From: an uncultured Candidatus Saccharibacteria bacterium
Lineage (GTDB): Bacteria; Patescibacteriota; UBA1384; 2-12-FULL-50-11
Reading direction: 5' to 3'
Length of the DNA: 64,000 bases
Assembly (NCBI GenBank): GCA_964599405.1
Contig: CAZRED010000002.1
Span: 44,198 to 108,197 of the forward strand
The notes under the pieces were generated by a model that was given only the letters and a program-made list of their open reading frames with translations, had not been told where the DNA came from and ran no database searches. Made by a program: the position numbers and the translations under genes. Shown piece after piece: positions 17,653 to 62,354 of this stretch (its first letter is position 1; each line of letters begins with the position of its first letter).

Positions 17653-17658
17653 AAATAA

Positions 17659-17687: not shown

Positions 17688-17697
17688 GGGTTGTCTG

Positions 17698-18973: not shown

Positions 18974-18987
18974 TTTAGCTCGAGTGA

Positions 18988-19593
18988 ATGCACATGAACA
19001 GAATCAACTTTAGACTCGCAAGAGGGGAAGAAGAGCTGTATGAAATATTAGCTCTGCGGTATAGAATCTTTGCGCTCGAAAAGGGGTGGATCGCAACGAA
19101 CCCAAGTGGCATTGACTTTGACCAGTGGGATTTCGCAAGCAGCCACCTTTGTGCCGTGGATGAATCTGGCAAGGTACTTGGTACCATGAGATTGATTCAC
19201 AATTCGCCCTTCGGATTCCCTGGTGAAGCCGCTTGTCCGTGCTTAATTGGTTCGTCGAAAGATCGGACTTATGAAGTATCGAGACTTGCTGTCGAGGAAC
19301 AGGAAAGAGGAAGACGCTCGCTAATCCTTATTGGTCTCTGCAGGTTAGTGCCTAGACTGGCAAAACTGCACAAGATTGATGATTGGATTGTGGTAGTGGA
19401 CAAGCCGGTTGCAAGAATTCTGAAAGGCCTAGGTTTCAACTTTGACTTCACTGGAGAGGTTGTTGACCATTTGGGATCACCGTGCGTTCCGTTGAGATGC
19501 ACCATGACCGAGGCAAGAAGAGTTCTATACCAGCCAAACTTATCGGAGCTTTTGGCAACTCACATCGAGGAAGCCTATGAGACTATCGAATGA
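18988..19593 (+). CDS. GNAT-fold N-acyltransferase of the autoinducer-synthase/FeeM N-acyl-amino-acid-synthase-like family
   Basis: LRYRIFALEKGW…VSRLAVEEQERGR pattern typical of PF13444 / exosortase-associated N-acyl amino acid synthases. Confidence 0.55.
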   Translation: MHMNRINFRLARGEEELYEILALRYRIFALEKGWIATNPSGIDFDQWDFASSHLCAVDESGKVLGTMRLIHNSPFGFPGEAACPCLIGSSKDRTYEVSRLAVEEQERGRRSLILIGLCRLVPRLAKLHKIDDWIVVVDKPVARILKGLGFNFDFTGEVVDHLGSPCVPLRCTMTEARRVLYQPNLSELLATHIEEAYETIE

Positions 19594-19600
19594 CCCATGA

Positions 19601-19625
19601 CGGCCGCATTACTGCGGCCGTTTTT
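19601..19625 (+). terminator. rho-independent terminator
   Basis: cggccgca-ttac-tgcggccg followed by ttttt. Confidence 0.8.
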
Positions 19626-19661
19626 GTTTAGATTTTTATCTCTAGGTGGTACTTTGGAAAT

Positions 19662-20465
19662 ATGGAAATATTTAATTATTCAGATTTTACACAGAGAAAC
19701 ATTGGAATAATATCCGTTTCTGATCAAGAAAAAGTGCGAACCTCTACGATCGCAATTGCAGGATGTGGGGCAGATGGTGGAGCACCCGCTATATCACTAG
19801 CAAGACTCGGCGTTAGTAATTTTAGGCTAGCAGATCCAGATGTTTTTGATTACAGCAATATTAATAGGCAGGAAGGTGCATTTACTGACACCATTAATAC
19901 GAAGAAAGCAAGGGAGATTGAATTAATAATAAAAAAAATAAATCCAGAGGCTAATGTCACAATCTACACAGAGGGTATTAATGAAGACAATGTGAATGAG
20001 TTTATTGAAGGGTCAGATATCGTCTTGGACGAGATAGACTATAGAAAGCCAAAGTATGCGCTTCTATTACACATAGTGGCGAGGAAACTGAATATCCCAG
20101 TAATTACTACTGTATCAGTTGGGTGGAACGCTTTTCTTTTCTATTTTGATCCATCTGGACTCACGTTTGAGGAGTACGTAAAAAAGGAGCCTCTTTCTGT
20201 TGAAGATAATTTTGAAGTAAACCCTTCTGCTTACGCACCAGAGTTACCCTCATATATTTCTGAAGAACTTTTAAAGGATATACTTTCAGAAAAAGTGGAG
20301 ATACCAGTTGTAGATCCCGCTGTTAGATTGGCGTCTGCACTAGCAAGCTCCTTTTGTATTTTTTGGTTGACTGGCGCAAAGAAGATAATGGCTGTTCCCC
20401 ATTATTACTCGGCGGGTGATTTATTACTGAAGCAGGAAAGCTTTAATAATTTGCGTAGGTCTTAA
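19662..20465 (+). CDS. ThiF/MoeB/E1-like adenylyltransferase (stand-alone, 267 aa)
   Basis: Rossmann nucleotide-binding motif IAIAGCGADGGAPAISLARLGV. No rhodanese, E2 or peptide-clamp domain, and no adjacent ThiS/MoaD-like ORF. Confidence 0.75.
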   Translation: MEIFNYSDFTQRNIGIISVSDQEKVRTSTIAIAGCGADGGAPAISLARLGVSNFRLADPDVFDYSNINRQEGAFTDTINTKKAREIELIIKKINPEANVTIYTEGINEDNVNEFIEGSDIVLDEIDYRKPKYALLLHIVARKLNIPVITTVSVGWNAFLFYFDPSGLTFEEYVKKEPLSVEDNFEVNPSAYAPELPSYISEELLKDILSEKVEIPVVDPAVRLASALASSFCIFWLTGAKKIMAVPHYYSAGDLLLKQESFNNLRRS

Positions 20466-22756
20466 TGGACGGACTGATTCTGTATTTGATTCTGGCATTC
20501 TTTGTCGTGATGAATTTGGTTTTGGGTTTGGTAGTTTTAAGAGCTGACTCAAAATCGGCTACCAATCGCCTTTTCGCCGGCTTCATCCTTTCGGTACTTG
20601 CTTGGCTCGTCACCAATGCAGTCGCTGATGCATCGGCGACTGCGACACTAGTTACCAGTTGGACTAAAATAACCATGGCCTCAGCGGCAAGCATTCCCTG
20701 GCTGCTACTACTTTTCACTTTAGTTTTTCCAACGAACGAGAAGTTAAGTAGAAAAACCATAATTCTACTGACCGTTCCTTATATGTTGGTGGCGCTTTTG
20801 TCCCTATTTACGGGACAAATTATTCAATCAGCAATATCAGTGGATAATGTAACACAGGTTACTTTTGGAAACTTAATCATTCTTTACGCAGCGTTCCTGT
20901 TGTTTTACGCGTGTTCATCCGTTTGGATACTAATACGAAAATTTAAACGTGCTGTGGGTATAGCACGGGCACAGATCGCATACTTTCTATTAGGCTTATC
21001 GCTTTTTATCATTTCTGCGTTAACAACTAATCTTATTCTCCCGGTAGTATTTCAAATCTTTTATTTAACCCCCTTTGGTTCGCTAACTACGGGGTTCTTA
21101 CTGGGGTTCACTGCTTACGCAATTGTTAGACATGGGCTCTTTAACATAAAAGTAATCTTAGCGCAGATTGCCGTCGTGTCCTTGGTGTTGGTAAACGGAA
21201 TCCAGTTATTCGAATCAGATAGTGTTGGTAACTTAGTTTTAAGGTCCGCAGTGTTTATTTTAGTCGCTGGGTTTGGGTACCTCTTTGTTAGGTCTGTGAT
21301 TAATGAGGTCAAAAGAAGAGAAGAGGTCGAGAAGCTTGCTCAAGAAAAAATAGAAGCACTAGGAGAATTGGAGCTTCGAAATAAAAACTTAGCGACACTG
21401 CAACAGATATCCGACATTGTTCTGAATGAAAACGATACAAAACAAATGGTTCAGAAGATTTTAGACGAAATTCCCAAGCAACTTGAATCATGCGTCAGTG
21501 GTCTGCTCTCGATTGTTAAAGACGGCAAACTAACGGCATACGCGATTAGCAGGAACAACCTATCACAAAAAGTCGTGGCAATGATCGGTGGGAGCTTGGA
21601 TAAGTATAGTTTCCCAATCAAGAAAGAATATAACCGGATTCACGAGGCGCTGGTGGATAAAAAGTCGATCGACTCGGATAATCTGACCGACTTTATCTCC
21701 CCGCCGATTCCTAAGGCTGTGGCTGCTTCCATTCAAACGTTAATCGGCGCCAAACATATTGAAGTGTTCCCGCTCTATGCTGGTGGTGAGCCACTAGGGG
21801 TAATGTTGTTTGTCTTTAATAAACCCGGCGCCGAAGTACATGAGAAAAACTACGCCATTGCCAAAGCAATTTCCGATGACTTGAGTTTGGCGGTACAACG
21901 AGCTCAAGCTTTTGAGCAGTTACAGGCGGCCAACGAGTATTTAGCCCAGCTGGACAAGATGAAAGATGAGTTCATCTCTATGGCCTCGCACGAGCTGAAT
22001 ACGCCGCTGGCGGCCATCGAGGGCTACCTGTCGATGATTCTGGACGAGAACATGGGCAAGATCGATAAACAAAGTCGCACCTACCTAAACCGGGCTTACG
22101 CCAGTTCCAAGCGCCTAGCAGAGTTGATTCTAGACTTGTTGAACGTCTCCCGAATTGAGCAAGGCCGGCTGAAGATGAAGTATGAAGAAATCTCCGTCGC
22201 CGAAATGGTGGAAAGCGTTATTCACGAGCTGCAAATTAAAGCCGACGGCAAAAAAATCTATCTAAAAACCGCCTTCGCCAAGGATTTGCCGAAAGTTTGG
22301 TGCGACCCCGACCGAATCCGGGAAGTGATCGTTAACCTGACCGGTAATGCCATTAAGTTTACGGACAAAGGCGGCATTACTATCAAGGCTAGCCAGCCAG
22401 ACGCCAAAAATATCCGTGTCCAGGTAGTCGATACCGGCCGGGGTATTGCCAAAGAAGACCAGCCCAAGCTCTTCCAGAAGTTCTCTCAAGTCAAGCGGGA
22501 AGTGGACGAGCACCAAGGCAGCGGTCTGGGACTCTACATCAGCAAGAACTTTGTGGAGCTGCATAACGGCAAGATCTGGGTGGATAGCGAAACCGGCAAG
22601 GGCGCGGCCTTCAGTTTTGAGCTGCCACTGATTAAAGAGCCGCCGAAAGAAGTGAAAGGGGCAGTACTGGAAGGACCGTTGAGCGCGCCACGGATTGAGC
22701 GAGGCAACCCAATGGAAGTGCCGACCGGCATTAAAGAGTCGGCGAAGAAAACTTAA
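20465..22756 (+). CDS. sensor histidine kinase (polytopic N-terminal sensor, coiled coil, HisKA + HATPase_c)
   Basis: About 8 TM helices in the N-terminal 290 aa; H-box SMASHELNTPLAAIEGY; N, G1 and G2 boxes (NLTGNAIKFT, DTGRGI, GSGLGL). Confidence 0.8.
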   Translation: MDGLILYLILAFFVVMNLVLGLVVLRADSKSATNRLFAGFILSVLAWLVTNAVADASATATLVTSWTKITMASAASIPWLLLLFTLVFPTNEKLSRKTIILLTVPYMLVALLSLFTGQIIQSAISVDNVTQVTFGNLIILYAAFLLFYACSSVWILIRKFKRAVGIARAQIAYFLLGLSLFIISALTTNLILPVVFQIFYLTPFGSLTTGFLLGFTAYAIVRHGLFNIKVILAQIAVVSLVLVNGIQLFESDSVGNLVLRSAVFILVAGFGYLFVRSVINEVKRREEVEKLAQEKIEALGELELRNKNLATLQQISDIVLNENDTKQMVQKILDEIPKQLESCVSGLLSIVKDGKLTAYAISRNNLSQKVVAMIGGSLDKYSFPIKKEYNRIHEALVDKKSIDSDNLTDFISPPIPKAVAASIQTLIGAKHIEVFPLYAGGEPLGVMLFVFNKPGAEVHEKNYAIAKAISDDLSLAVQRAQAFEQLQAANEYLAQLDKMKDEFISMASHELNTPLAAIEGYLSMILDENMGKIDKQSRTYLNRAYASSKRLAELILDLLNVSRIEQGRLKMKYEEISVAEMVESVIHELQIKADGKKIYLKTAFAKDLPKVWCDPDRIREVIVNLTGNAIKFTDKGGITIKASQPDAKNIRVQVVDTGRGIAKEDQPKLFQKFSQVKREVDEHQGSGLGLYISKNFVELHNGKIWVDSETGKGAAFSFELPLIKEPPKEVKGAVLEGPLSAPRIERGNPMEVPTGIKESAKKT

Positions 22757-31552: not shown

Positions 31553-33502
31553 TTAGTCGCGGGCGACGCGCCAGACCTCTTCAATGGTAGTAACGCCGGC
31601 CATCGCTTTCAGGATACCGTCCTGCTTCATCGTAATCAGCCCCTCTTTGAAGGCTTGGGCGACAATTTCGCTGGTGCTAGCGTGCTTCAGGGCCAGCTGG
31701 CGGATTGGCTCGGTAATTGATAACACTTCAAAGATACCAATACGCCCGGAGTAGCCACTGTTGTTACAGGCTTCGCAGCCTTGGCCAACGTAAAATTTAT
31801 TGATTTTTAGCGCTGCCGATTTCTCCGGCTCCGGCATTAAGTCCATTTCTTTTTTCACCGCTTCCACATCCTCCGGTTTAATTGGTGCTTCTTTACGGCA
31901 TTTCTCACAGATTTTTCGACACAACCGTTGGCCGACTACTGCATTGAGCGAAGAGGTAATTAAAAACGGTTCAATTCCCATATCGAGCAGTCGGGGGATA
32001 GCGCCGGCCGAGTCATTGGTGTGGAGCGTGGAAAGCACAATATGGCCAGTTAAGGCGGCATTAATGGCAATATCGGCCGTTTCGCGATCGCGAATTTCTC
32101 CCACCATCACCACGTCGGGGTCTTGGCGCAAAATTGAGCGCAAACCGGTAGCAAAGGTGAAGTCAATCTTCGAATTCACCTGGCTTTGGTTGACTTCCGG
32201 CATTCGGTATTCGACGGGATCTTCCATAGTAACGATGTTAATGCCGGGGTCATTAATAGTGCTAATTGCCGAGTAGAGGGTAGTGGATTTACCGGAGCCA
32301 GTCGGACCGGTCACCAGAATCATGCCGTGGGATTTCTTGATGTTATCGCTCAGTATCTTCAAATTCCGGCCAGTGATACCCTGTTCTTCGAAGCTCATTA
32401 CGCCCTTGCTGTGCATTAGAACGCGAGCAACCACTTTCTCGCCGTTGACAGTGGGCAAGGTGGAAATACGGAAATCGACTTTCTCGCCGTCCATCAGAAT
32501 TTGAATCCGGCCATCTTGGGGCAGGCGGGTTTCGTCAATTTTCAAGTTAGAAAGAATTTTAATTCGGGAAATTACGCCACTTTTGACTTGTTTGGGCAGC
32601 GTCAATACTTTGCGTAGCACACCATCCACCCTGAAACGCACCTGAACTTCTTCTTCCAACGGCTCAATATGAATATCAGAAGCTTTTTCCCGAACCGAGC
32701 GTTTCAAGAGTGATGCGACAATTTTGGCAGCTGGAGAGGTTTCGGTAATTTCTTCGTCATCAGCAGCATCTTTTTTGGCTTCTTCGTCTTCGTCAACTGT
32801 CTCCAGTTCTTCGCTGGATTTCACCAGCTCTTTTAGGTCGGCTTGGAGCGAGGTGTATTGGTCGAGAATCCGGTTAACGTCGTCGAGGGTAGTGATAAAT
32901 GGCCGAATAATTTTTCCAGAAGTTTTACGGATAGTGTTGAAAGCCTCTTCGTTTTCTGGGTCGGTCATGGCTACTGACAGTGTGTTGCCTTCTAAAGCAA
33001 ACGGCACAGCCAAATACTTCCGGGCAATTTTATCAGGAATCAAAGCCAGGATATTTTTGGGGATCTGCTTACCGGAGAGCTCAATAAATTGAACATCGCT
33101 GCCGCGGGTTTGGAGCGGACTAATCCGGAATGTCTCGTCGATTGGTTGGAGGGGCGCTTCGGTGGCCGGAGTAGCGGTCAAGGAATCCTTAATCGCCTCG
33201 TTGACTGTGAATTCGATAGTGGTGGCCGCATCCAACTTTAAGACCTGCCTCTTACCGCCGAAATTAGTCGTGACTTTGCGGCTGGGTAGTCGAACTAACT
33301 TGAAAGTGCCCAGATCGGGCAGCTCTACCGCTTCATCAGCGCGGAGTGCTTCTCCAATCACGTCAGTACCGGCTTTCAAATAGGCCCGCACCTTAAATGT
33401 CGGCAACTTCGTCGCTGTGGCGATTTTTTTAATCACATCATTTGTTACTGCCAACTCACCCTCCTCTATGCATGCTAGCAAAAGAGCGACAATTTGACAC
33501 AT
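31553..33502 (-). CDS. pilB: type IV pilus assembly ATPase PilB (GspE family) with an N-terminal HU/IHF-like DNA-binding domain fusion
   Basis: Walker A GPTGSGKSTTLYS, Asp box, Walker B, His box, and a CxxC…CxxC tetracysteine motif. N1 domain of GspE type. The first ~95 aa (VTNDVIKKIATATKL…GTFKLVRLPSRKVTTNFGGKRQVLKLDAATTIEF…AIKDSL) align along the whole length of HU/IHF (BHL fold). ATG at 33502. Confidence 0.85.
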   Translation of the reverse strand: MCQIVALLLACIEEGELAVTNDVIKKIATATKLPTFKVRAYLKAGTDVIGEALRADEAVELPDLGTFKLVRLPSRKVTTNFGGKRQVLKLDAATTIEFTVNEAIKDSLTATPATEAPLQPIDETFRISPLQTRGSDVQFIELSGKQIPKNILALIPDKIARKYLAVPFALEGNTLSVAMTDPENEEAFNTIRKTSGKIIRPFITTLDDVNRILDQYTSLQADLKELVKSSEELETVDEDEEAKKDAADDEEITETSPAAKIVASLLKRSVREKASDIHIEPLEEEVQVRFRVDGVLRKVLTLPKQVKSGVISRIKILSNLKIDETRLPQDGRIQILMDGEKVDFRISTLPTVNGEKVVARVLMHSKGVMSFEEQGITGRNLKILSDNIKKSHGMILVTGPTGSGKSTTLYSAISTINDPGINIVTMEDPVEYRMPEVNQSQVNSKIDFTFATGLRSILRQDPDVVMVGEIRDRETADIAINAALTGHIVLSTLHTNDSAGAIPRLLDMGIEPFLITSSLNAVVGQRLCRKICEKCRKEAPIKPEDVEAVKKEMDLMPEPEKSAALKINKFYVGQGCEACNNSGYSGRIGIFEVLSITEPIRQLALKHASTSEIVAQAFKEGLITMKQDGILKAMAGVTTIEEVWRVARD

Positions 33503-33593
33503 AAATGTCCTCTGAGTGTGACAGTGACAATGGGGGTGGTCTGTGGCAATATGAGCCCATGCAAAAAAGAGGGAGAAATGGCCTGGGTGGTCG

Positions 33594-35099
33594 ATGACCA
33601 CACTCTACCGGCTTTATCGGCCGACCCATTTCGGTGAAGTAATTGGCCAGGATCATATCCGCTCGGTGCTTCAAAACACGGTGGCTAAAAACGCGATTGG
33701 CCAAGCCTACCTTTTCTCCGGTCCGCGGGGAAGCGGCAAGACTACCGTAGCTCGGCTCTTTGCCAAAGCCGCCAACTGCCAGAAGCCAGCTAAAGACGGC
33801 AACCCCTGCAATAAATGCGCTAGCTGCCAAGAAATTATGGACGGGCGAGCGGTGGATGTGTTGGAAATTGATGCCGCATCGAACCGGGGAATCGATGAAA
33901 TCCGCGAATTACGCGAAAGAGTAAATTTCACACCGGTCGCCGCCAAATTCAAAGTTTACATTATTGACGAGGTGCATATGCTCACCCGTGAAGCATTTAA
34001 TGCCCTGCTCAAGACCCTGGAAGAGCCGCCCACTCACGCCATTTTTATCTTAGCTACTACCGAATTACACAAAGTGCCAGAAACAATCATTTCGCGCTGC
34101 CAACGTTTTGCTTTTCGCCGGGCCAGCGATCAAGAGCTCCAGCAGTTATTAGAAACTGTGGTCGGTAAAGAAAAAATTCCTCTGGCGGCCGAAGCGTTTG
34201 AAGTGATTATCCGCCGAGCCGAAGGGTCGTACCGCGACGCACTGTCGCTGCTCGGCAGCCTTTCGGCCCATGGCGGCAATATTAGTCACGATCAAGCTTT
34301 GATGCTACTGGGGTTGCCGCCACAACAGCTGCTAGAGGGTATCGTTACCGACTTGGAACAGGGCAACGCCGGGGAGCTGCAAGCCAAACTGATTGCGGCG
34401 CTGACCGCCGGGCACGACCTAGTGATTTTAACGAAGGTCTTAGCCGACCATTACAAGAAAAGGATCCTGCAATCTGGCGAAATTGGCGAAAAAATCGGCC
34501 GCGACGCGGCCATTTTAGAGCAGCTGTTAGTGGCCCTAACCCGTAGTCGCTACAGCAGCGACCCGACTGGCTCGGTACTCGCTCGGCTCCTGTCGGTGTG
34601 TACGGCGATTAACAGCCAAGCGGCCAAATCTGCGCCTACTAAACCAGTGATGGTGTCCTCTGAGCAAACTCAAGTCAAAGACCTTCATCAACCCACCGAT
34701 GATCCTCTCGACGCCCAGAAGCCAACTGAAGCTGCTAACGTTGATGCTGTCACTAGTCCGGTTAAACCCATCGAAGGAATGGAAGAATTCTGGAGCGCCT
34801 TTTTGCACGAAATGAAACAACACAACCACGCCCTCTACATGTTGCTACGCTCGGCGATTCTGCTGGATTTAACGGATGAAAAAATGCTGCTGGCAGTGCG
34901 TTTTCGTTTTTACTCCGAGCGGCTTTTTGAAGTGAAAAACCGCCAGCTGATTGAAGCCTCGGCCGAAAAGTTGCTTGGCAAAAAAATTACTCTAGAGTGC
35001 GAAGTGCGTAGCGACTTGGATACCGGAGCAGGCGGGGGCGAGGATTTGGTCAGCGCTGTTGTTGACGTCTTTGAATTGGAGAAATCCCCCGATGAATAA
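33594..35099 (+). CDS. dnaX: DNA polymerase III subunit gamma/tau
   Basis: RFC-box/AAA+ motifs (GPRGSGKTT, DEVHML, SRC). Divergent from pilB. Confidence 0.85.
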   Translation: MTTLYRLYRPTHFGEVIGQDHIRSVLQNTVAKNAIGQAYLFSGPRGSGKTTVARLFAKAANCQKPAKDGNPCNKCASCQEIMDGRAVDVLEIDAASNRGIDEIRELRERVNFTPVAAKFKVYIIDEVHMLTREAFNALLKTLEEPPTHAIFILATTELHKVPETIISRCQRFAFRRASDQELQQLLETVVGKEKIPLAAEAFEVIIRRAEGSYRDALSLLGSLSAHGGNISHDQALMLLGLPPQQLLEGIVTDLEQGNAGELQAKLIAALTAGHDLVILTKVLADHYKKRILQSGEIGEKIGRDAAILEQLLVALTRSRYSSDPTGSVLARLLSVCTAINSQAAKSAPTKPVMVSSEQTQVKDLHQPTDDPLDAQKPTEAANVDAVTSPVKPIEGMEEFWSAFLHEMKQHNHALYMLLRSAILLDLTDEKMLLAVRFRFYSERLFEVKNRQLIEASAEKLLGKKITLECEVRSDLDTGAGGGEDLVSAVVDVFELEKSPDE

Positions 35100-39883: not shown

Positions 39884-39948
39884 AATAAACTGAAAAACGG
39901 CGAGCCTAACCCTCGCAAAAATATGTGTTTCAGGGTAAAATTGCGCTG

Positions 39949-40755
39949 ATGAATCCGTCTGAAATTCTAAAAACCCTCGATAAATTTCCCAACAAAAAGT
40001 TTGGGCAGCATTTTTTAACCGACGTTAAAGCCCTTGCCGACATCGTTGAGGCCGCCGAACTCTCTAAGAATCAGACGGTTGTGGAAATCGGGCCGGGCTT
40101 GGGCGTATTAACCGAACAGCTCTCACAAAAAGCCGGCCGGGTGATTGCCGTGGAGGCCGATCGAGAACTGGCAGAGTACCTTCGTGACCGCAACCTGCCC
40201 AATGTCACCGTCATTACCGGTGATGCGCTGCAGGTGGAGTGGGATTTGACTATTGAGGGCGAATACAAAGTCGTTGCCAATATTCCTTATTCAATTACAT
40301 CACCGCTCTTAAGAAAGATTTTCTCGCTGACCAAAAAGCCAACCGAAGTGATTTTATTGGTTCAAAAAGAGCTAGCGGAACGCCTAGTGGCGGTACCAAA
40401 AACCCGCGCTCGCGGTTTTATGACTGTTTTGCGGGAAGCCAATGCTGGAGCAGAGATTTTACGAACAGTTAGCCCAGGCAGTTTTTACCCAGCGCCAAAA
40501 GTGGACTCCGCCGTTATCAAAATTACACCGTTCAAAGAAAGTAAAATGGAGCTGCTCTTCTGGCCGATTGTTGAATCTGGCTTTCGCCATAAGCGCCAAA
40601 CTCTTGCTAACGCTTTATCGGCCGATTTGCAGATTGCCAAAAGCGAAACCGCTAAAGTCTTGGAGAGTCTAAAGCTTACCGCCATGGCTCGGGCCGAAGA
40701 ACTGTCGTTTGAGCAATGGGAAAAACTCTGCACCGTTTTAAAGGAGAAAATCTAA
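39949..40755 (+). CDS. rsmA: 16S rRNA (adenine1518/1519-N6)-dimethyltransferase RsmA/KsgA
   Basis: FGQHFL…VVEIGPGLGVLT SAM-binding motifs and NIPY motif. ATG 39949 (MNPSEIL…) preferred over the upstream GTG at 39925. Confidence 0.85.
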   Translation: MNPSEILKTLDKFPNKKFGQHFLTDVKALADIVEAAELSKNQTVVEIGPGLGVLTEQLSQKAGRVIAVEADRELAEYLRDRNLPNVTVITGDALQVEWDLTIEGEYKVVANIPYSITSPLLRKIFSLTKKPTEVILLVQKELAERLVAVPKTRARGFMTVLREANAGAEILRTVSPGSFYPAPKVDSAVIKITPFKESKMELLFWPIVESGFRHKRQTLANALSADLQIAKSETAKVLESLKLTAMARAEELSFEQWEKLCTVLKEKI

Positions 40756-41414
40756 TGCTCTATATCGTGGCAACGCCAATCGGTAATCTGGAAGACATCA
40801 CCTTCCGGGCTGTCGATATTCTCAAAACTGTCGAGAAGATTTACTGTGAAGATACCAGGAGAACACGTATTCTCCTTGCTCGCTTTAGCATAACTACCCC
40901 AACCGAAAGTTTTCATCATTACTCCGACGGAAAAATCGCTCAAATCATCAAAGACCTCCAAGATGGCGCCGATTTTGCCTACGTTAGCGACGCCGGTACA
41001 CCGGGGATTGCCGACCCGGGCGGGAAGCTAGTCGAAGCGGCGCACATTGCTGGTGTACAGGTAGTGCCAATTCCTGGTGCCTCTTCCGTAACAGCCCTAC
41101 TCTCCGTTGCCGGTATCCCAGCCAATCAGTACCGCTTTGCTGGTTATGTCCCCACTAAGAAGGGTCGCCAAACATTCATAAAGAAACTTTTGGAAGCCGA
41201 TGAAGCGGTAGTCTTTTTTGAAACAGCGCCGCGAATTCAGAAATTTTTCGACCAAGTAATTGCCCTCGGTGGTGCTGACCAGGAATTTGTTGTTGGCCGT
41301 GAACTAACTAAAAAGTTCGAAGAAGTTAAACGCGGCAATCCAATTGAGCTAAAAGAGGATTTCGCTAAACCGCTCGGCGAATTTGTGGGCGTGATTAACC
41401 CGAAAAAAAGTTAG
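40755..41414 (+). CDS. rsmI: 16S rRNA (cytidine1402-2'-O)-methyltransferase RsmI
   Basis: MLYIVATPIGNLEDIT… tetrapyrrole-methylase fold. ATG overlaps the rsmA stop. Confidence 0.85.
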   Translation: MLYIVATPIGNLEDITFRAVDILKTVEKIYCEDTRRTRILLARFSITTPTESFHHYSDGKIAQIIKDLQDGADFAYVSDAGTPGIADPGGKLVEAAHIAGVQVVPIPGASSVTALLSVAGIPANQYRFAGYVPTKKGRQTFIKKLLEADEAVVFFETAPRIQKFFDQVIALGGADQEFVVGRELTKKFEEVKRGNPIELKEDFAKPLGEFVGVINPKKS

Positions 41415-41692: not shown

Positions 41693-43123
41693 GTGAAAAA
41701 GACCTACATTACTACCTCCATCGCATACATTAATGCCGAGCCGCATATCGGTTTTTTGTTGGAGCTGTTATCGGCGGATGTGTTAGCCCGCTACCACAAA
41801 CTTCAGGGCGAAGAAGTATTTTTTACCACTGGCACTGACGAGCACGGCTCGAAAATTGCTCAAGCGGCCGAGGCGGCGGGCAAAGAGCCGCAAAAGTACG
41901 CCGACGAAATTTCCAAAAAGTTTGAAAAACTCGGCAAGGATTTTGGGATTGAATTTGATTTCTTTGTCCGCACTACCGACCCAAAACATAAGAAATTCGC
42001 TCAAGAGCGCTGGAAACAGCTGGAAAAAGCTGGGGCTTTGGAGAAGCGCAAATATAAAGGTTACTACTGCGTTGGCTGTGAGGCCTTTAAAACCGAACGG
42101 GAAATCGCCGGCAATAAATGCTTAATTCATGAAAAAGAGCTAGAAGTAATCGAGGAAGAGAACTGGTTCTTCAAGCTATCAGATTACCAAGAGAAAATTT
42201 TGGAGTGGTTAATTCAGGAAAAACCGGTCAAGCCGGAGGGGCGTTTGAACGAAGTTATCAACGTTGTTAAAGAGCTGGAAGACATTAGTTTTAGCCGACC
42301 GAAAGACAAATTGAGCTGGGGCGTGCCCGTGCCTGCCTCGCCAGCGAAGCAAGGCGGGCCGGGGGATCCCGAGCAAACAATGTATGTCTGGGCCGATGCC
42401 CTCTGGAACTATTTGTCGGTCTTTGAGCTGGCGGGCAAGGACAGTAAAGAATACTGGCCGGCTGACCTGCAGATTATCGGCAAAGATATTTTGAAATTTC
42501 ATGGGGCAATATGGCCAGGGCTACTATTAGCTTGTGGCTACGAATTGCCAAAAAAACTACTAGTCCACGGGTTTGTGAATGTGGACGGTAAAAAAATGTC
42601 GAAATCGCTTGGCAATGTAATTACGCCGAAAGAGTTGCTGGAGCGTTACGGCCGGGAGGCCACCCGCTACCTGATTTTCCGCCAACTTTCGTACTACGAA
42701 GACAGTAATTTCACTTGGGAGGATTTTGACGCCATCTATAACGGCGATTTAGCTAACGGTATCGGCAACTTAGCGAACCGAGTAATTGGCTTGCTGAAGC
42801 GCTTTAAAGCGGAATCAGTGGTGCCAAAAAAGGTGGAAATTGAGTCGGCACTAGCTGACGAAGATTTTGGTGCGGAGCTGGAAAAAGTCCGGAGCTTACT
42901 GGGCGCTGCCGACCAGTGGATTACCGAAGTGGAGCCCTGGAGCTGGGGTAAAGACGAGCCGGTGTCTAAGGACCAAATAAACAATTTAATTGACCAATCC
43001 AACCTATTTGAAATTGCTGTCCGGCTGGAGCCGTTCATGCCCGAAACGGCCCAGTCTATCCGGGAGCAGCTAAAAACTCTGAAAGCCGAACCGCTCTTCC
43101 CGCGCTTGGTTACACCCACGTAG
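41693..43123 (+). CDS. metG: methionyl-tRNA synthetase (short form)
   Basis: HIGH-region equivalent (AEPHIGF), KMSKS, and zinc-knuckle Cys pairs (CVGCEAF…C). GTG start. Confidence 0.9.
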   Translation: MKKTYITTSIAYINAEPHIGFLLELLSADVLARYHKLQGEEVFFTTGTDEHGSKIAQAAEAAGKEPQKYADEISKKFEKLGKDFGIEFDFFVRTTDPKHKKFAQERWKQLEKAGALEKRKYKGYYCVGCEAFKTEREIAGNKCLIHEKELEVIEEENWFFKLSDYQEKILEWLIQEKPVKPEGRLNEVINVVKELEDISFSRPKDKLSWGVPVPASPAKQGGPGDPEQTMYVWADALWNYLSVFELAGKDSKEYWPADLQIIGKDILKFHGAIWPGLLLACGYELPKKLLVHGFVNVDGKKMSKSLGNVITPKELLERYGREATRYLIFRQLSYYEDSNFTWEDFDAIYNGDLANGIGNLANRVIGLLKRFKAESVVPKKVEIESALADEDFGAELEKVRSLLGAADQWITEVEPWSWGKDEPVSKDQINNLIDQSNLFEIAVRLEPFMPETAQSIREQLKTLKAEPLFPRLVTPT

Positions 43124-43270
43124 AGCGGCACGTTGTTTGAGCGACTTACGCAGCCGTCTTGGCACGGTCGCACCCCTGGTGCGCAAGCGGCGAGGAATTA
43201 AGCGTAGCGATTTTGCGAAGCAAATTCTGAACAGAGGTGATGATTCGCTGGACGAGCAAGCGGTCGCGAA
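43124..43270. repeat. left copy of a ~140-bp inverted repeat pair (partner at 45985..46122)
   Basis: Its reverse complement matches 45985-46112 with about 88 % identity over about 130 nt (shared core …cgcttgctcgtccagcgaatcatcacctctgttcagaatttgcttcgcaaaatcgcta…cttaattcctcgccgcttgcgc…ccaagacggctgcgta.gtcgctcaaa). Confidence 0.8.
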
Positions 43271-43328
43271 AATAATGTGACGCTCGTAGCTAGCTTGCCT
43301 TTTTCCAGGTATTTGCCAACATTGAGGT

Positions 43329-44177
43329 ATGTTACTTGCCTTCATCTCCGCCATCTCTTCGGCGGCCAGCACTATCTACGATAAGTGGCTACTTACCCGC
43401 GAGCGGCTATCGATTGGGACGCTGCTCTCGATCGGTTTCTTGCTAATCGCTGGCATCACACTGACACTAACCCCGTTTTTAGGGGCGATTGATTGGGACT
43501 TGGCGCTACTGCCTAACAGCCTGTTCCTGCTGTTTATTATGGTAATTCTAGCGACGGCTTGGAACGTGCTCTACTATCAGGGGCTACAGAAACAGAAAGT
43601 CCACGACCACGAGTTAATGATGATGCTGGCGCCGGTGCTAACAATCTTGCTGGCTGCCGTCTTCTACCAAGAAGAGCTGGATATGCGGGTATTTTGGCTG
43701 GCGATTATTGCCAGCTTAACGCTGCTGTTTGCCAAGGGCCAAAAAGAACACTTCTTTCTGAACCAAAACTCCTACAACACTTTTCTGGCGGTGGTACTGC
43801 TCTCGGCCGAAACTATTGTTATTCGCGAGCTACTTTACTCGTACACGCCGGTGGCGCTTTACTCTGTTCGAACCATAATCTTGGCGGTGTTCTTTATGCT
43901 CTACTACCGGCCGCGTTCGTCGCAGATATCAATCCGGCACTGGTGGATGGTGGCCGGCAGTGCCCTACTTGGGGTAATCCTGATGCTAACCCGCTACTAT
44001 TCCTTTGCCGAGACCGGCATTATCTACACGATGTTGGTGTTGGTAATCTCGCCGATGATTGTCTACTTTGCCTCCTGGGAGATGCTCCACGAAAAAATCC
44101 GTCCGCGCATTTTGATTGCCGCGGTAGTGATATTAACCTGTGTGACACTGGCCACCACGATTATTTTCGGTAGTTAA
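43329..44177 (+). CDS. EamA/DMT-family membrane transporter
   Basis: 10-TM duplicated EamA-like topology, 282 aa. Confidence 0.6.
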   Translation: MLLAFISAISSAASTIYDKWLLTRERLSIGTLLSIGFLLIAGITLTLTPFLGAIDWDLALLPNSLFLLFIMVILATAWNVLYYQGLQKQKVHDHELMMMLAPVLTILLAAVFYQEELDMRVFWLAIIASLTLLFAKGQKEHFFLNQNSYNTFLAVVLLSAETIVIRELLYSYTPVALYSVRTIILAVFFMLYYRPRSSQISIRHWWMVAGSALLGVILMLTRYYSFAETGIIYTMLVLVISPMIVYFASWEMLHEKIRPRILIAAVVILTCVTLATTIIFGS

Positions 44178-44959
44178 TGCGCGCGCTAGATTCACACGCC
44201 CATCTGGATTTTTCCAATTTCGATGCTGATCGCAATACTTTAGTTGCCGAGCTGGCTAAAGAGCGGATCGGCGTTATCAATATCGCCACCGATAAGGAGT
44301 CGCTAGGAAAAGTTGATCAGCTGTCGCGCGACAATCCGCTAATTTGGGGAGCGGTGGGGATTCACCCCACCGAAGTCGGGCCAAAAGCGGTGCTGAATAT
44401 TAGCGAAATAATTAACAAATTAACCGAACTGCGCGCAAATAATCCAAAAATTGTGGCGATCGGAGAAATCGGGCTGGATTATTTTCACTCCCAGGAACAT
44501 ATCGGCGATCAAAAAGTGGTGTTGCAGGAGCTGCTGAACTACGCCAAGGCCGAAGATTTACCGGTTATTTTTCACTGCCGCAATGCATATGGCGATTTGC
44601 TGACGATTTTACAGCGCTATTCGGGTTTGCGGGGAGTAATTCACTGTTTCAACGGCAACGCCGAACAAGCCAAAGGCTTTTTGGACGCGGGGCTGCACTT
44701 GTCGTTCACCGCGATGCTAACCTACAAAGCTAACGAGGGTTTGCGGGTGGTTGCTCGCGACGTACCGCTGGAAAAACTTTTGTTGGAAACAGACGCACCG
44801 TTTCTGGCGCCGCAATCGAGGCGGGGGGAGCGCAACGACCCCCGAGCGATTCTGGAAATTGCCGAGCTGCACGGCCAGCTGCGTGGAATTTCAACCGAAG
44901 AAATTTTAGAGCAAACAACCGCCAATGCCGTTAAACTGTTTGGCTTGGAAGCGAGCTAG
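44177..44959 (+). CDS. tatD: TatD-family metal-dependent hydrolase (DNase)
   Basis: DSHAHLDF N-terminal motif, GEIGLDY, internal His and C-terminal Asp of the TIM-barrel amidohydrolase fold. Confidence 0.8.
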   Translation: MRALDSHAHLDFSNFDADRNTLVAELAKERIGVINIATDKESLGKVDQLSRDNPLIWGAVGIHPTEVGPKAVLNISEIINKLTELRANNPKIVAIGEIGLDYFHSQEHIGDQKVVLQELLNYAKAEDLPVIFHCRNAYGDLLTILQRYSGLRGVIHCFNGNAEQAKGFLDAGLHLSFTAMLTYKANEGLRVVARDVPLEKLLLETDAPFLAPQSRRGERNDPRAILEIAELHGQLRGISTEEILEQTTANAVKLFGLEAS

Positions 44960-44977
44960 CTGCTACGCTAAAAACAG

Positions 44978-45952
44978 ATGAACTGGGTAGATTTCCTAAT
45001 TATTATCACCTTCGGGATTTATCTGTACGAGGGTCTGCGCCGCGGCTTTATTGAACAGCTACTAGAACTGCTCGGCTTCTTTTTAACAATTATTTTGGCA
45101 CTCTGGACCTACAAGCCGCTTGGCGGTTGGCTGGTGGAGAACGTCGGCCTGGTGGCCGGAGTGGCCGAACCAATTGGATTCTTGTTGGTCTGGGTGTTTT
45201 TGCAGGCGATGTATTCGCTGGCATTGAAGCTTTCGTACCCACTGATTCCAGAAAAAATTCGTAGCGCTACCTTCAATCGAGCCACTGGACTGATACCGGC
45301 ATTTATTCGTGCCTTAATTGTCGTCGGAGTTTTATTGACGTTAGTAACGATTGCCCCCGTACCGGGGCGGCTCAAAGAGACGGTTAGCGACTCGTTAATT
45401 GGTTCAAAGTTCGTCGCTCGTTCGTCGCAAATTGAAGGCTTTATTAACCGGATTTTTGGTCGCAACGTCAAAGATAGCCTGACGTTTATCACCGTGCCGG
45501 CTCAGACAGAAGAAATTATCGCGCCGAATGAAACGGTTGACTTGAAGTTCAGCACCACTGATGTGGAGGTGGATAACGAGTCGGCAACGGAAATGCTGGA
45601 TTTAATTAACGACGAACGGGCAAAAGTTGGTCTGCACGCATTAATTTGGGACGAAGAGTTGGCCGATGTAGCCCGGGCGCACTCAAAAGACATGTTTGCC
45701 CGCGGTTATTTTTCGCACACTAACCCCGACGGCCTGTCGCCGTTTGACCGGATTGATCGAGCGGGGATTGATTTTAAAGCGGCCGGCGAGAACCTGGCTT
45801 ACGCTGCTAACGTCGAGCTGGCACACAACGGGCTGATGCGCTCCGAGGGGCATCGGGCGAACATTTTGGAGGTAGACTTTGGCCGGGTCGGTATCGGGGT
45901 GATTGACGGCGGAATCTACGGCAAGATGTTCACGCAGAATTTTCGGGACTAG
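44978..45952 (+). CDS. membrane protein with N-terminal CvpA-like TM domain and C-terminal CAP/SCP/PR-1 domain
   Basis: Four N-terminal TM helices (CvpA-like). C-terminal HSKDMFARGYFSHTNPDG…GENLAY…HRANIL CAP-domain signatures. Confidence 0.55.
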   Translation: MNWVDFLIIITFGIYLYEGLRRGFIEQLLELLGFFLTIILALWTYKPLGGWLVENVGLVAGVAEPIGFLLVWVFLQAMYSLALKLSYPLIPEKIRSATFNRATGLIPAFIRALIVVGVLLTLVTIAPVPGRLKETVSDSLIGSKFVARSSQIEGFINRIFGRNVKDSLTFITVPAQTEEIIAPNETVDLKFSTTDVEVDNESATEMLDLINDERAKVGLHALIWDEELADVARAHSKDMFARGYFSHTNPDGLSPFDRIDRAGIDFKAAGENLAYAANVELAHNGLMRSEGHRANILEVDFGRVGIGVIDGGIYGKMFTQNFRD

Positions 45953-45984
45953 TGAACGGGGCGGAAGCTCTTCTCGCGACCGCT

Positions 45985-46122
45985 TGCTCGTCCAGCGAAT
46001 CATCACCTCTGTTCAGAATTTGCTTCGCAAAATCGCTATGCTTAATTCCTCGCCGCTTGCGCCCATCGGGCGACCATGCCAAGACGGCTGCGTACGTCGC
46101 TCAAAGAGTCCCGCCCCTTAGC
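45985..46122. repeat. right copy of the inverted repeat pair
   Basis: See left copy. Ends about 35 nt before the -10-like TATAAT (46143-46148) of mnmA. Confidence 0.8.
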
Positions 46123-46155
46123 TAGTTAGGGTTTTCCAGGTATAATTTTGGCGTT

Positions 46156-47301
46156 ATGAAACGTGTAATTGCTTTAATGAGCGGAGGAGTAGACTCTTCC
46201 GTTACTGCTGCCCTCTTGAAAGAGCAGGGCTATGATGTGATTGGGGTATATATTTTGGGCTGGACCGGTACCGACGAGTTTCCTTGTGCTTGGCAGAACG
46301 AGCAGGCCGATGCCCAGGCCGTGGCCGAAAAGCTGGGGATTCCGTTTTACACTGTTAACCTGTCAAAAGAGTACGAAACAGAAGTAATTGATACCTTTTT
46401 TGCCGGATACAACGCCGGTCGCACTCCTAACCCGGACATTATCTGTAACCGGGAAATTAAGTTCAAACATCTCTGGCAAGCAGTCCGACAATTTGAACCA
46501 GACTTTGTTGCTACCGGCCATTACGCCAAAATGAAAGAAGTTCGAAACCCGAAATCAGGTATTTCTGCCCCCGCGATTGTTAAATCGCGGGATGTAGACA
46601 AGGATCAAACATATTTTCTCTGGGGAATTGACAAGGCAATGCTGTCGAAAATCTTGTTCCCGCTGGGCGAAATGACGAAAAAACAGGTTCGCGAGCTAGC
46701 TAAAAAACACAACCTACCAACTGCCGCCAAAAAAGACAGCCAGGGAATTTGCTTCGTGGGGCCGCTGAAAGTCCGGGAGTTTCTGCGTAGCAGGGTTAAA
46801 AGCCGTCCTGGAAAGGCAGTACTGCCAACTGGCGAAGTGGTGGCCGAGCATGAAGGAGTGGAGTTCTACACCATCGGCCAACGTTTGGGTGCTGGCTCGG
46901 TGGCTTGGACCGGCGATGTCCCACCGCTCTTTGTAGCGGCTAAGGATCAAAAAACCAACACGCTAGTTGTTTCCGGCGACCATGACACGTTTGCCGATAG
47001 TTTTGTGGCCGACCAACCGAATTGGCAACAACCCGTCGCTGATTCTTTCGATTGCCTGGTGAAAGTGCGCTACCGCCAAGCCGACGTCAAAGCCAAGGTT
47101 AATGTCGTTAAGAACCAACTCCACATCACCCTGGCTGAACCAGTTCGGGCAATTACGCCGGGGCAATCGGTGGTTTTTTACTCAAACGACGGTTCACTAC
47201 TAGGTGGGGGAATCATTGCCGCTGTACCAACAGCCGACGAACTGGTACAAAAGGTACATGGAGCAAGAGCGCGCCAAACCTCTCGACGTCGCTCGAGGTA
47301 A
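46156..47301 (+). CDS. mnmA: tRNA-specific 2-thiouridylase MnmA
   Basis: PP-loop SGGVDSS, catalytic Cys residues, colinear with MnmA. The 3' end overlaps the next gene. Confidence 0.85.
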   Translation: MKRVIALMSGGVDSSVTAALLKEQGYDVIGVYILGWTGTDEFPCAWQNEQADAQAVAEKLGIPFYTVNLSKEYETEVIDTFFAGYNAGRTPNPDIICNREIKFKHLWQAVRQFEPDFVATGHYAKMKEVRNPKSGISAPAIVKSRDVDKDQTYFLWGIDKAMLSKILFPLGEMTKKQVRELAKKHNLPTAAKKDSQGICFVGPLKVREFLRSRVKSRPGKAVLPTGEVVAEHEGVEFYTIGQRLGAGSVAWTGDVPPLFVAAKDQKTNTLVVSGDHDTFADSFVADQPNWQQPVADSFDCLVKVRYRQADVKAKVNVVKNQLHITLAEPVRAITPGQSVVFYSNDGSLLGGGIIAAVPTADELVQKVHGARARQTSRRRSR

Positions 47302-48424
47302 ACGACTCGCCGTTAGCCGGTTTTTAACAGTTGTTGCCGCGCTTTTGGTGTTTGGGGCTGGTGTTTTTGTTGGCACCTCGGCCGAGCGCAGCAGAACCGT
47401 CCTCGACCTATCGAAGCTTTGGCGGGTTTATTCTTTAATATCTGAAAACTACCCGGGCGAAATTAATAAAGAAACAGCGGTTGATGGAGCGATTCGTGGG
47501 CTGGTGGATAGCCTTGGGGACCCCTATAGTGCGTACCTCGGTGAAGTAGAGCGACGTCAGCTAGAGGAAGATTTAAGTGGCCAATTTGAAGGAATCGGCG
47601 CAATCCTTACCCAAAAAGATGGGACAACGGTAATTGTTGAACCAATTGAGGGCTCGCCGGCAGCTATTGCCGGATTACAGAAAGACGACGTAATTACGGC
47701 CGTTGGCGACGAAGTAGTGGCTGGCCTGGTGTTGGAAGACGTGGTGTCAAAAATTCGCGGACCGAAGGGCACGAAAGTTACCCTGACAATTCTCCGTGAT
47801 GGAACCGAGCTAACCATGGAAATTGAGCGCGGTACCATCACAGTGGAATCGGTTAAGTCGGAAAAACGTGGCGATATCGGCATTATTCATATCAGACAGT
47901 TCGGCGACGATACGGTGGAGGGGGTGCGCTCGGCGATTGCCGATTTAGAGAAACAGAATGTCACGGCCTACTTGATTGATTTACGCGATAACCCGGGAGG
48001 CTATCTCAACTCCGTTCCACCTATTGCCGGTTTCTTTTTGCCGCCAGGCTCAACGGTGGTCAAGCAACTTTACCAGGGGGGACAGAAAGATGAGCTGCGC
48101 ACCACCGAAGCGCCACTAGTATCGACGAAACCGCTTTACATATTTATCAACGGCGGCTCGGCCTCGGCCTCCGAAATTTTAGCCGGAGCGCTGCAGGATC
48201 ACGGTCGGGCAACGGTACTCGGCGAAAAATCTTACGGCAAGGGCTCGGTTCAGGACATCATTAACCTGCGCGGCAACACGGCGCTGCGCCTAACCATTGC
48301 CGAATGGATTACGCCAAACGATCGACACATTTCTAAGGTAGGGATTGAGCCGGATCAGCAAATTGTTAACGACGACAATGCGGCGGGGCTGCAACAAGCT
48401 CTAGATTTCATCGCCAGCCACTAA
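47258..48424 (+). CDS. ctpA: carboxyl-terminal processing protease (S41 family, PDZ domain)
   Basis: N-terminal TM anchor, PDZ domain, and S41 catalytic region (…GGSASASEILAGAL…, catalytic Ser/Lys spacing). ATG 47258 has an AAAGG RBS; an upstream GTG at 47204 is an alternative. Confidence 0.75.
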   Translation: MEQERAKPLDVARGKRLAVSRFLTVVAALLVFGAGVFVGTSAERSRTVLDLSKLWRVYSLISENYPGEINKETAVDGAIRGLVDSLGDPYSAYLGEVERRQLEEDLSGQFEGIGAILTQKDGTTVIVEPIEGSPAAIAGLQKDDVITAVGDEVVAGLVLEDVVSKIRGPKGTKVTLTILRDGTELTMEIERGTITVESVKSEKRGDIGIIHIRQFGDDTVEGVRSAIADLEKQNVTAYLIDLRDNPGGYLNSVPPIAGFFLPPGSTVVKQLYQGGQKDELRTTEAPLVSTKPLYIFINGGSASASEILAGALQDHGRATVLGEKSYGKGSVQDIINLRGNTALRLTIAEWITPNDRHISKVGIEPDQQIVNDDNAAGLQQALDFIASH

Positions 48425-49277: not shown

Positions 49278-49285
49278 CGCATTTC

Positions 49286-49420
49286 TTTGCAGAGGACAGG
49301 GGGCTTAGTTGCGAAGCAGCCCCCTATCCTCTGCACTCCAACCCCCGCACGCTTCTCTACGAGGTGTGGAGAAAAACGGGCTCATAACCTGCTGTGGGTT
49401 AGATTCGCACCGTTTTTCAG
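49286..49420 (+). repeat. copy A of a two-copy structured element (~135 nt; partner 62213..62354). Candidate cis-regulatory RNA.
   Basis: Long hairpin GCAGAGGACAGGGGGCU-UAGUUGCGAAGC-AGCCCCCUAUCCUCUGC. It is followed by the conserved ACUCCAACCCCCGCACGC, then a variable region with shared blocks (GUGGAG…GGCUCA…ACCUGCUGUGGGU) ending in a U-run. Confidence 0.7.
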
Positions 49421-49469
49421 CTATTTCTATCTAGAAATAAGACATCTTTTCCCTTAAACTAAGGGGGAA

Positions 49470-52354
<2,885 letters not shown>

Positions 52355-53197: not shown

Positions 53198-53281
53198 TAC
53201 CTCCGTACTGTGTTGGGATTATACCCCGAAACATAGAAAAAGTCAATCTGTTGAGGTAATATTTTACTCCTTGAAGCCCAA

Positions 53282-53336
53282 AAACTTGGTGCGAAGGTTT
53301 TGAGCGAAAAAGAGTTTCTGAAGTTAGTTGGGTAGG
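53282..53336 (+). repeat. degenerate duplicate of the ligA 3' end (encodes …[20 protein letters not shown])
   Basis: About 80 % nt identity to ligA 52300-52354, which encodes …[20 protein letters not shown]. With ligA it brackets a 0.93-kb segment containing the ClpP-like gene. Confidence 0.6.
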
Positions 53337-62171: not shown

Positions 62172-62212
62172 TATTGTTATTCTAACAGGTTTAGAAACCT
62201 AAATCATTGTTT

Positions 62213-62354
62213 TTTGCAGAGGACAGGGGGACTAGTTGCGAAGCGTCCCCCTACCCTCTGCACTCCCACCCCCGCACGCTGCCCCGGGCGGGTGGAGCAA
62301 AAGCTGGCTCACGGACCTGCTGTGGGTCAGGCTCGCCGCTTTTGCGCTTTTTCG
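62213..62354 (+). repeat. copy B of the structured element (partner 49286..49420)
   Basis: Same hairpin with compensatory changes (GGGGGAC…GUCCCCC versus GGGGGCU…AGCCCCC). Conserved ACUCCCACCCCCGCACGC. Ends in GCCGCUUUUGCGCUUUUU. Begins about 45 nt from the prfA start on the opposite strand and about 200 nt upstream of rpmE. Confidence 0.7.

Follow-up and report, generated by a model that had tools for sequence, protein, structure and literature searches.

What is the origin of two long inverted repeats that enclose three genes in a genome of the Patescibacteria? The stretch of DNA analysed in our study (the window) comprises 64,000 nucleotides of contig CAZRED010000002.1, from an uncultured Candidatus Saccharibacteria bacterium, and the repeats stand on either side of eamA, tatD and a gene encoding a CvpA-CAP membrane protein. 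We hold with moderate confidence that the repeat represents a family not described before, whose members are palindromic, rod-shaped elements of 104–137 nt without coding capacity, present in low copy number in Berkelbacteria-like Patescibacteria. These would be non-autonomous mobile elements, similar to MITEs (miniature transposable elements with inverted repeats) or to REPINs, which are placed into the loops of stem-loops that follow stop codons.

Repeat copies and their host hairpins

A repeat search of the window identified two pairs of inverted arms, one of 92 nt with 98% complementarity (43181–43272 and 45971–46062) and one of 36 nt with 94% (43136–43171 and 46070–46105). The arms were merged by blastn into one alignment, 43136–43272 against 46105–45971, with 94.2% identity over 137 columns (E = 2e-55). 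The ~140-bp inverted repeat of the original prediction is real; its coordinates were off by up to ~14 nt (copy B reaches 45971, not 45985) and its identity, given as ~88%, was too low. The core of the two copies comprised 89 nt with 1 mismatch, and the segment-proximal part of each copy showed perfect identity over 56 bp, the differences being located in the outer parts. When a core probe of 50 nt was run with at most 3 mismatches allowed, only two sites were found in the window, copies A and B, and none in 100 shuffles. Two covariance models were used, R1 for the full element and R2 for its 5′ domain. The two copies were as follows:

43136–43272, plus strand: repeat copy A, 137 nt, metG-eamA spacer, 172 bits with R1
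45971–46105, minus strand: repeat copy B, 135 nt, cvpA/CAP-mnmA spacer, in the opposite orientation to A, 167 bits with R1

Both copies were entirely intergenic, between the metG stop (43123) and the eamA start (43329) and between the cvpA-CAP stop (45952) and the mnmA start (46156), so that they occupy both spacers delimiting the three-gene segment, as had been described. No further copy was found in the window by blastn, repeat search, nhmmer or the covariance model, nor in ~10 kb past its right end. In the independent Logan assembly of run SRR6868922, the contigs end exactly at the repeats; variants specific to A were present in the contig on the metG side, and those specific to B in the contig on the mnmA side. 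Therefore, the repeat is not an assembly artefact.

When each copy was considered with its flanks, the following arms of host hairpins were obtained:

43123–43135, plus strand: metG host hairpin, 5′ arm with half-loop, GAGCGGCACGT + TG, from the fold of A with flanks
43273–43285, plus strand: metG host hairpin, half-loop with 3′ arm, TA + ATGTGACGCTC
45958–45970, plus strand: cvpA/CAP host hairpin, 5′ arm, GGGGCGG AAGCTC, 5 nt past the stop codon (45950–45952)
46106–46117, plus strand: cvpA/CAP host hairpin, 3′ arm, GAGTC CCGCCCC

The first base of the hairpin after metG is also the final base of that gene's stop codon, TAG (43121–43123). Deletion of A in silico gave the tetraloop hairpin GAGCGgCACGT-TG/TA-ATGTGaCGCTC, and deletion of B gave the clean hairpin GGGGCGG-AAGCTC/GAGTC-CCGCCCC, where the slash marks the insertion point; in both, this point was the centre of the loop. 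Each copy was placed exactly on the dyad axis of its own host hairpin, which begins at or just after the stop codon, and the chance of equally complementary flanks at a random position of the window was p = 0.0034. The flank stems of A and B were unrelated in sequence though the interiors were 94–98% identical, which indicates that the stems come from the host. With their flanks, both copies were predicted to fold into rods of ~160 nt, A with −61.5 kcal/mol (z = −2.2 as RNA, z = −2.7 as DNA) and B with −69.4 kcal/mol (z = −3.3; z = −3.0 for the other strand).

Inside the rods, the copies contained two kinds of small hairpins:

43169–43183, plus strand: internal hairpin H1 of A, CGCACC-CCT-GGTGCG
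46060–46072, minus strand: internal hairpin H1 of B, CGCCC-GAT-GGGCG, 1 bp shorter than in A
43212–43224, plus strand: mini-hairpin TTTGCGAAGCAAA in A
46019–46031, minus strand: mini-hairpin TTTGCGAAGCAAA in B

H1 corresponds to what had been called a hypervariable block. Its sequence does vary, and the block is a small hairpin whose stem was retained through different sequences in three copies (the third is described below). Between A and B one base pair was lost from both sides of H1, which is a compensated change, and the enclosing stem in both was GCCGtCTTG/CAAGCGGC. The mini-hairpin was present in both copies as predicted; its GCGAAGC motif was no more frequent in the window than expected (13 against 13.4). 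Copy A starts with TTTGAGCGAC and ends with GGTCGCGAAAA, and the termini of the element can be written as 5′ TTTGAGCGAC and 3′ GGTCGCGA(A/G)AA. Longer imperfect arms beyond the ~10-bp termini pair in the predicted fold.

The repeat is non-coding. Open reading frames (ORFs) containing RPCQDGC were present on the minus strand at 42736–43173 and on the plus strand at 45903–46121, and had correctly been regarded as by-products of the repeat. A 2-nt indel between A and B breaks their reading frame, Pfam gave no match for the ORFs of the element, and a concatenate of the six-frame peptides had no homologue among 5.8 billion proteins.

A third copy and the orthologous loci of relatives

The A/B covariance model and, independently, nhmmer picked up a third copy (copy C) at 20148–20251, minus strand, of locus L005 from Berkelbacteria RIFCSPLOWO2_01_FULL_50_28, with E = 0.44 and E = 0.25, respectively, over 841 kb. 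Its 5′ end was TTTCTTAGCGGCGTACGCAGGCG against TTTGAGCGACGTACGCAGCCG in A/B, and its 3′ end CGCCCGCGAGAAG against CGGTCGCGAGAAG. The 5′ domain was ~65% identical to A/B and the interior was shorter. The exact 5′ motif AGCGNCNTACGCAG was found only in A, B and C when both strands of 863 kb were searched, and CGCGARAA was present at the matching distance from it at all three sites. Copy C was located in the spacer that separates the genes for a DUF2207 protein and an M48 peptidase, antisense to both, and it was nested in the host palindrome CTGGTtAGCCGACA...TGTCGGCTaCCAG, with the upstream stop codon inside the 5′ arm. The 141-nt unit folded with −70.2 kcal/mol (z = −5.2). H1 of copy C was TTCGGCC-AAC-GGCCGAA and its enclosing stem GGCGGTTT/AAACCGCC; judged from the predicted pairings, different sequences maintain the structure of H1 and of the stem around it across A, B and C. 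In relation to the flanking genes, A was sense and B and C were antisense, and the presence of copies in both orientations fits an element that acts at the level of DNA. A search of the relative loci with R2 gave no further convincing copies. Weaker covariance-model matches in L020, L027 and L038 were due to chance, that in L020 being coding.

The genes around the two copies in the window were as follows, all on the plus strand:

39925–40755: ksgA
40716–41414: rsmI
41693–43123: metG, followed by copy A
43329–44177: eamA (Pfam EamA)
44177–44959: tatD (Pfam TatD)
44978–45952: cvpA-CAP (Pfam CvpA and CAP), followed by copy B, reversed
46156–47301: mnmA
47204–48424: ctpA

Among GTDB species representatives, the nearest MetG proteins (59–60%) were those of Candidatus Berkelbacteria and of a Patescibacteria metagenome-assembled genome (MAG). 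Seven relative loci with CvpA-CAP identity of 54–89% were compared: L046 (89%), L045 (88%), L047 (84%), L048 and L049 (75%), and L004 and L005 (~55%), of which L045–L049 were found via the CvpA-CAP protein. The order ksgA-rsmI-metG-eamA-tatD-cvpA/CAP-mnmA-ctpA(-lemA), with the same orientation, was conserved in 7/7 of these loci. At ~40% identity (L011) the gene order was kept, with ~2 kb inserted between tatD and cvpA-CAP, and the adjacency of metG and tatD was observed in dozens of Patescibacteria loci. The repeat was absent from the orthologous spacers of all seven loci by blastn, nhmmer and covariance model. The metG-eamA spacer, 205 nt in the window, ranged from 54 to 111 nt in the relatives (531 nt in L045); the CAP-mnmA spacer, 203 nt in the window, ranged from 41 to 199 nt and reached ~700–1150 nt where other material was inserted. 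At the same position after metG, L045 contained the hairpin GAAGCGAAGT-TGTT-ACTTCGCTTC, whose stem start and loop are similar to the reconstructed empty site, and the remaining relatives contained different hairpins there. Since the three genes are syntenic in relatives without the repeat, synteny argues that eamA-tatD-cvpA/CAP is ancestral at this position and not cargo, and that the repeats are later, recent additions. As to the earlier question of whether the segment is present, absent or inverted in relatives, it was present in the same orientation in every relative examined.

The two spacers look like insertion hot spots. In L045, the metG-eamA spacer contained a pair of ORFs of 77 and 68 aa (7832–8268, minus strand) and the CAP-mnmA spacer a pair of 131 and 120 aa (11185–12019, minus strand), both without Pfam match; each ORF of the latter pair was followed by a similar terminator hairpin, AAAGAAAACCGCCGACrGGGTCGGCGG. 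A perfect TATAAT was found 9 nt upstream of the mnmA ATG in the window (46141–46158), and the block ATATAATTTrGCC at mnmA was conserved in L045, L047 and L048, which suggests from sequence that the mnmA mRNA may be leaderless or nearly so.

A second intergenic repeat family of ~145 nt, unrelated to A/B, was also observed. In the window it was present at 49282–49425 and 62209–62352 (both plus strand, 79% identical), and elsewhere in L047 (4850–4994), L045 (10979–11125), L004 (14174–14307) and L005 (8103–8201). It consists of a long GC-rich hairpin and a C-rich linker followed by an A-run, a stem and a T-run resembling a bidirectional terminator. Compensatory changes were found in 13/39 predicted pairs, and Rfam gave no family, only spurious miRNA-hairpin matches. 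This family fills the CAP-mnmA spacer, the place of copy B in the window, in L004, L045 and L047. The spacer upstream of the M48 peptidase gene contained copy C in L005 and the second family (49282–49425) in the window. Because these spacers hold one or the other by lineage, the two structured families apparently swap places at the same spacers between lineages. A further locus, L020 (Patescibacteria MAG, labelled Saccharibacteria), contained its own families of 44–50-nt near-perfect palindromic repeats in spacers, and repeats of the repetitive extragenic palindromic (REP) type seem to be common in this group. Their positions in L020 were:

7207–7256, 13040–13089 and 20072–20121: first set of palindromic repeats
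8505–8548, 9285–9328 and 17767–17810: second set of palindromic repeats

Origin of the repeats and alternative explanations

The reading of the repeat as a mobile element is based on its near-identity within the genome against ~65% between genomes, its presence or absence at orthologous spacers, its occurrence in either orientation relative to the flanking genes, its conserved termini with a variable interior, and the placement of 3/3 copies on the dyad axis of unrelated host hairpins. On this account, the two copies would have arisen recently from one source in the lineage of the window. One would have entered the hairpin after metG and the other, in the opposite orientation, the hairpin after cvpA-CAP, and the bracketing of three genes would be a by-product of two nearby insertions. 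Movement would probably depend on an enzyme that acts in trans, has hairpin tips or palindromes as its recognition sites, and is encoded elsewhere in the genome or has now been lost. The lack of a target-site duplication would fit chemistry of the IS110 or HUH kind better than cut-and-paste by a DDE enzyme. Extragenic palindromes are targets of members of the IS3, IS110, IS4, IS256 and IS5 families (PMC1525189), and HUH enzymes act on hairpins of single-stranded DNA (PMC3333891).

Several results weigh against this account. The terminal inverted repeats are short and imperfect: scored as TTTGAGCGAC against the reverse complement of GTCGCGAAAA, they matched at 8/10 positions in A and 7/10 in B, which is weak for a transposase-binding terminal inverted repeat. 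No direct repeat of at least 3 nt flanked A or B at any choice of boundary, and so the target-site duplications looked for at the outer repeat ends were not found; the flanks (...CACGTTG / TAATGTG... for A, ...GGGACTC / GAGCTTC... for B) were inverted complements. The element is not AT-rich (55% GC, window 49%). The family comprises three sequences, two of them near-identical, with just two copies in ~75 kb of genome, 2.7 kb apart, and an exact probe of the central 24-mer had 0 matches in GTDB genomes and 0 in JGI metagenomes. No transposase, recombinase, REP-associated tyrosine transposase (RAYT) or reverse transcriptase was found in the window by Pfam, or in the 10 kb beyond it. Finally, the conserved internal hairpins fit a functional RNA equally well.

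The last point leads to the explanation that survives best among the others, namely that the repeat is a functional structured RNA or a 3′-end stem-loop module (a stabiliser, a terminator-like element or a small RNA), which was spread between post-stop sites by duplication or gene conversion. The stable folds of A, B and C with flanks and the maintenance of H1 and its enclosing stem through different sequences agree with it. Likewise, no more than a few nt separate the start of each copy (3/3) from a stop codon, relatives contain other hairpins at these positions, and the presence of the second structured family in the same spacers of relatives suggests that these positions are selected for structure. 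However, no Rfam family was found (Rfam 15 gave nothing at gathering score over 64 kb and nothing at E ≤ 10 over 42900–46400), and the repeat is absent from orthologous spacers of relatives at 75–89% CvpA-CAP identity. One copy is sense and two are antisense to the flanking genes, the stem lacks a T-run and is not a canonical intrinsic terminator, and near-identity within a genome against ~65% across genomes is the pattern of a proliferating repeat. We regard this explanation as rather unlikely.

The inverted copies may instead act as recombination sites of a DNA switch, in which eamA-tatD-cvpA/CAP flips via RecA or a site-specific invertase encoded elsewhere. Arms of 92 bp with 98% identity at a distance of 2.7 kb are long enough for homologous inversion, the perfect inner identity over 56 bp with differences in the outer parts is compatible with conversion during exchange, and the segment includes the promoter-like block of eamA, so that an inverted operon could still be expressed. 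Against this, one orientation was found in the window and in 7/7 relative loci, no invertase or recombinase was found in 64 kb, and the element occurs singly in L005. To our knowledge, known invertase sites are far shorter than these repeats. The Logan de Bruijn contigs end at the repeats and are silent on orientation. Such a switch seems to us a distinctly improbable explanation.

It was also proposed earlier that a composite transposon or mobile cassette, with the repeats as its ends, carried the three genes in. Inverted repeats do bracket the genes, and the absence of a transposase or recombinase between them was confirmed, the enclosed genes being those given above. In every relative, however, the same genes follow metG and precede mnmA and the repeats are lacking, the unit has no flanking direct repeat (CACGTTG and GAGTCCC, its outer flanks, do not form one), and each repeat is nested in its own hairpin, all of which makes the cassette very hard to sustain. 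A chimeric or duplicated contig end, conceivable in a MAG from a single run, has next to no probability given the copy-specific variants in the independent assembly and the position of the repeats inside a 154-kb contig with intact flanking genes.

Other candidates were tried and rejected. An intrinsic terminator was not supported, as neither copy is followed by a T-run on either strand and neither spacer contained a terminator-like site; promoter and terminator consensus scans were at background level. For an attC site, the core sites RYYYAAC and GTTRRRY were not found at the ends, the copies are opposed in orientation and the window contained no integrase. A template/variable pair of a diversity-generating retroelement was rejected (mismatches not adenine-specific, reverse transcriptase absent), as were a retron ncRNA and 6S RNA (no reverse transcriptase in the window, no Rfam family). 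The tRNA/tmRNA scan gave no gene in the 64-kb window. The similarity of the right end of A to the L047 spacer (GTCGCGAtAATAgT) was too weak to be used. The 10-mer TTGCGAAGCA is common to the element and the second family, which have no overall similarity, and 20/300 shuffles scored as well. A 13-nt identity downstream of A and B (TTTTCCAGGTAT) was read as a resemblance of promoter regions, because both blocks are homologous to the regions upstream of eamA and mnmA in relatives. Distant-mode blastn against the plasmid and phage collections gave no match. In metagenomes, a 21-mer of the 3′ arm had one match (L050), which was due to chance, inside an ECF-sigma-like coding region of 64% GC; arm probes and a gapped two-terminus pattern gave chance matches in coding regions of the viral collection, 0 of them confirmed by the covariance model. 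In the literature searched, no account of small interspersed repeats in Patescibacteria was found.

If the insertions occurred as a mobile element would make them, the 3′ stem-loop of the metG and cvpA-CAP transcripts would have grown from ~10 bp to a rod of ~160 nt. In a read-through transcript, A and B were predicted to pair into a duplex of ~130 bp with −262 kcal/mol, against −44 and −36 kcal/mol for the local folds. Such a long-range duplex would be a substrate of the RNase III type, and the inverted pair (92 bp, 98% identical) could allow the 2.7-kb segment to invert. A broader and rather speculative proposal is that these repeats form a new class of hairpin-tip-seeking, duplication-free mini-elements of the candidate phyla radiation (CPR), nested in terminator stem-loops and exchanged with a second structured family, whose opposed pairs within one co-directional gene array could form an RNA duplex or drive inversion. 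If true, the eamA-tatD-cvpA mRNA would form a loop closed by the A-B duplex and be processed by RNase III, much as precursors of rRNA are, or the segment could flip back and forth by means of the pair. The family would also mark stem-loops that are exposed in vivo, and would point to a palindrome-recognising enzyme in this lineage. The genomes of Patescibacteria are small and their load of mobile elements is usually assumed to be low. Repeats of this kind break short-read assemblies, as in the Logan contigs, and yield spurious ORF calls in the annotation of MAGs, and the bracketed genes are ordinary genes of a core neighbourhood, not horizontally moving cargo.

Other features of the window were also observed. 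Positions 12000–22000 had a low GC content (0.42–0.46 against ~0.50) and contained genes for an archaeal-type S-adenosylmethionine synthetase (PF01941, 14876–16123), a myo-inositol-1-phosphate synthase, a FeeM/autoinducer-synthase-like GNAT and a ThiF-family protein; this stretch may be an acquired island. At 31553–33601 (minus strand), a PilB-like type II/IV secretion ATPase (T2SSE and MshEN) contained an N-terminal HU-like Bac_DNA_binding domain (residues 54–141), an unusual fusion that adjoins pilC, pilM and pilN. A 49-nt stretch of the ligA 3′ end (52293–52341) was repeated with 86% identity in the clpP-glycosyltransferase spacer (53274–53322), which looks like a small duplication of a gene fragment.

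Comparison with known systems

In its behaviour the element comes closest to small palindromic repeats of intergenic regions (MITEs such as ERIC, Correia and QMITE, and REPINs), and in its choice of target to insertion sequences that seek palindromes. MITEs are defined by terminal inverted repeats of ~4–30 bp and a target-site duplication (PMC10969869). Like ERIC, Correia, RUP and QMITE (PMC10969869), the element is ~100–200 bp in size, non-coding and intergenic, and its imperfectly palindromic sequence forms a long hairpin once transcribed. Its copies in one genome are nearly the same, its distribution across genomes is patchy, and it may act on neighbouring transcripts, as do Correia elements, which are cleaved by RNase III, and ERIC at the 3′ ends of genes. 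The length is below 500 bp without a coding frame (137 and 135 nt), and filled and empty sites were found, since the orthologous spacers of relatives are empty and the reconstructed site matches the L045 hairpin. The copies are two in 64 kb plus ~10 kb, with one diverged copy at an unrelated locus of another genome. The element differs from MITEs in the absence of a target-site duplication, in its ~10-bp imperfect terminal repeats, in not being AT-rich, in its two copies in 75 kb, in having no recognised parent insertion sequence (IS) and in its insertion on the dyad axis of a hairpin instead of a TA-type site. The foldback or MITE-like nature that had been suggested stands in so far as it is a small foldback element; without a target-site duplication, with weak terminal repeats and not AT-rich, it cannot be filed as a canonical MITE.

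REP/REPIN sequences, which are associated with RAYT enzymes (Y1 HUH), share with the element a palindromic and intergenic nature, conserved hairpins, no target-site duplication and a conservation of structure above sequence (PMC3116915, PMC3333891). REPs are often located at the 3′ ends of genes, as is this element. They are 20–40 bp long, high-copy and carry a GTAG or CGTC tag at one end (PMC3733652), whereas the element is a low-copy, multi-hairpin rod of 104–137 nt with the termini TTTGAG.../...CGAGAAG, without a tag, and the window contained no RAYT gene or Y1 domain.

The third group comprises IS elements that target palindromes (IS1397 and ISKpn1 of the IS3 family; IS621, ISPa11 and ISPpu9/10 of the IS110 family; PMC1525189). 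These share with the element a target in the form of an extragenic palindrome or stem-loop and a high selectivity for the site. They are autonomous, 1–1.5 kb long and encode a transposase, and their target is the repeated REP, whereas here a non-coding element of 137 nt is found in unique host hairpins. Known small repeats at terminator positions are most similar to the second family of the window (49282–49425 and 62209–62352), with its final A-run, stem and T-run; the element itself lacks a T-run and is unrelated to them in sequence. The notable features are the nesting at the hairpin apex together with the absence of a target-site duplication; the element is of a known kind, and the family is new.

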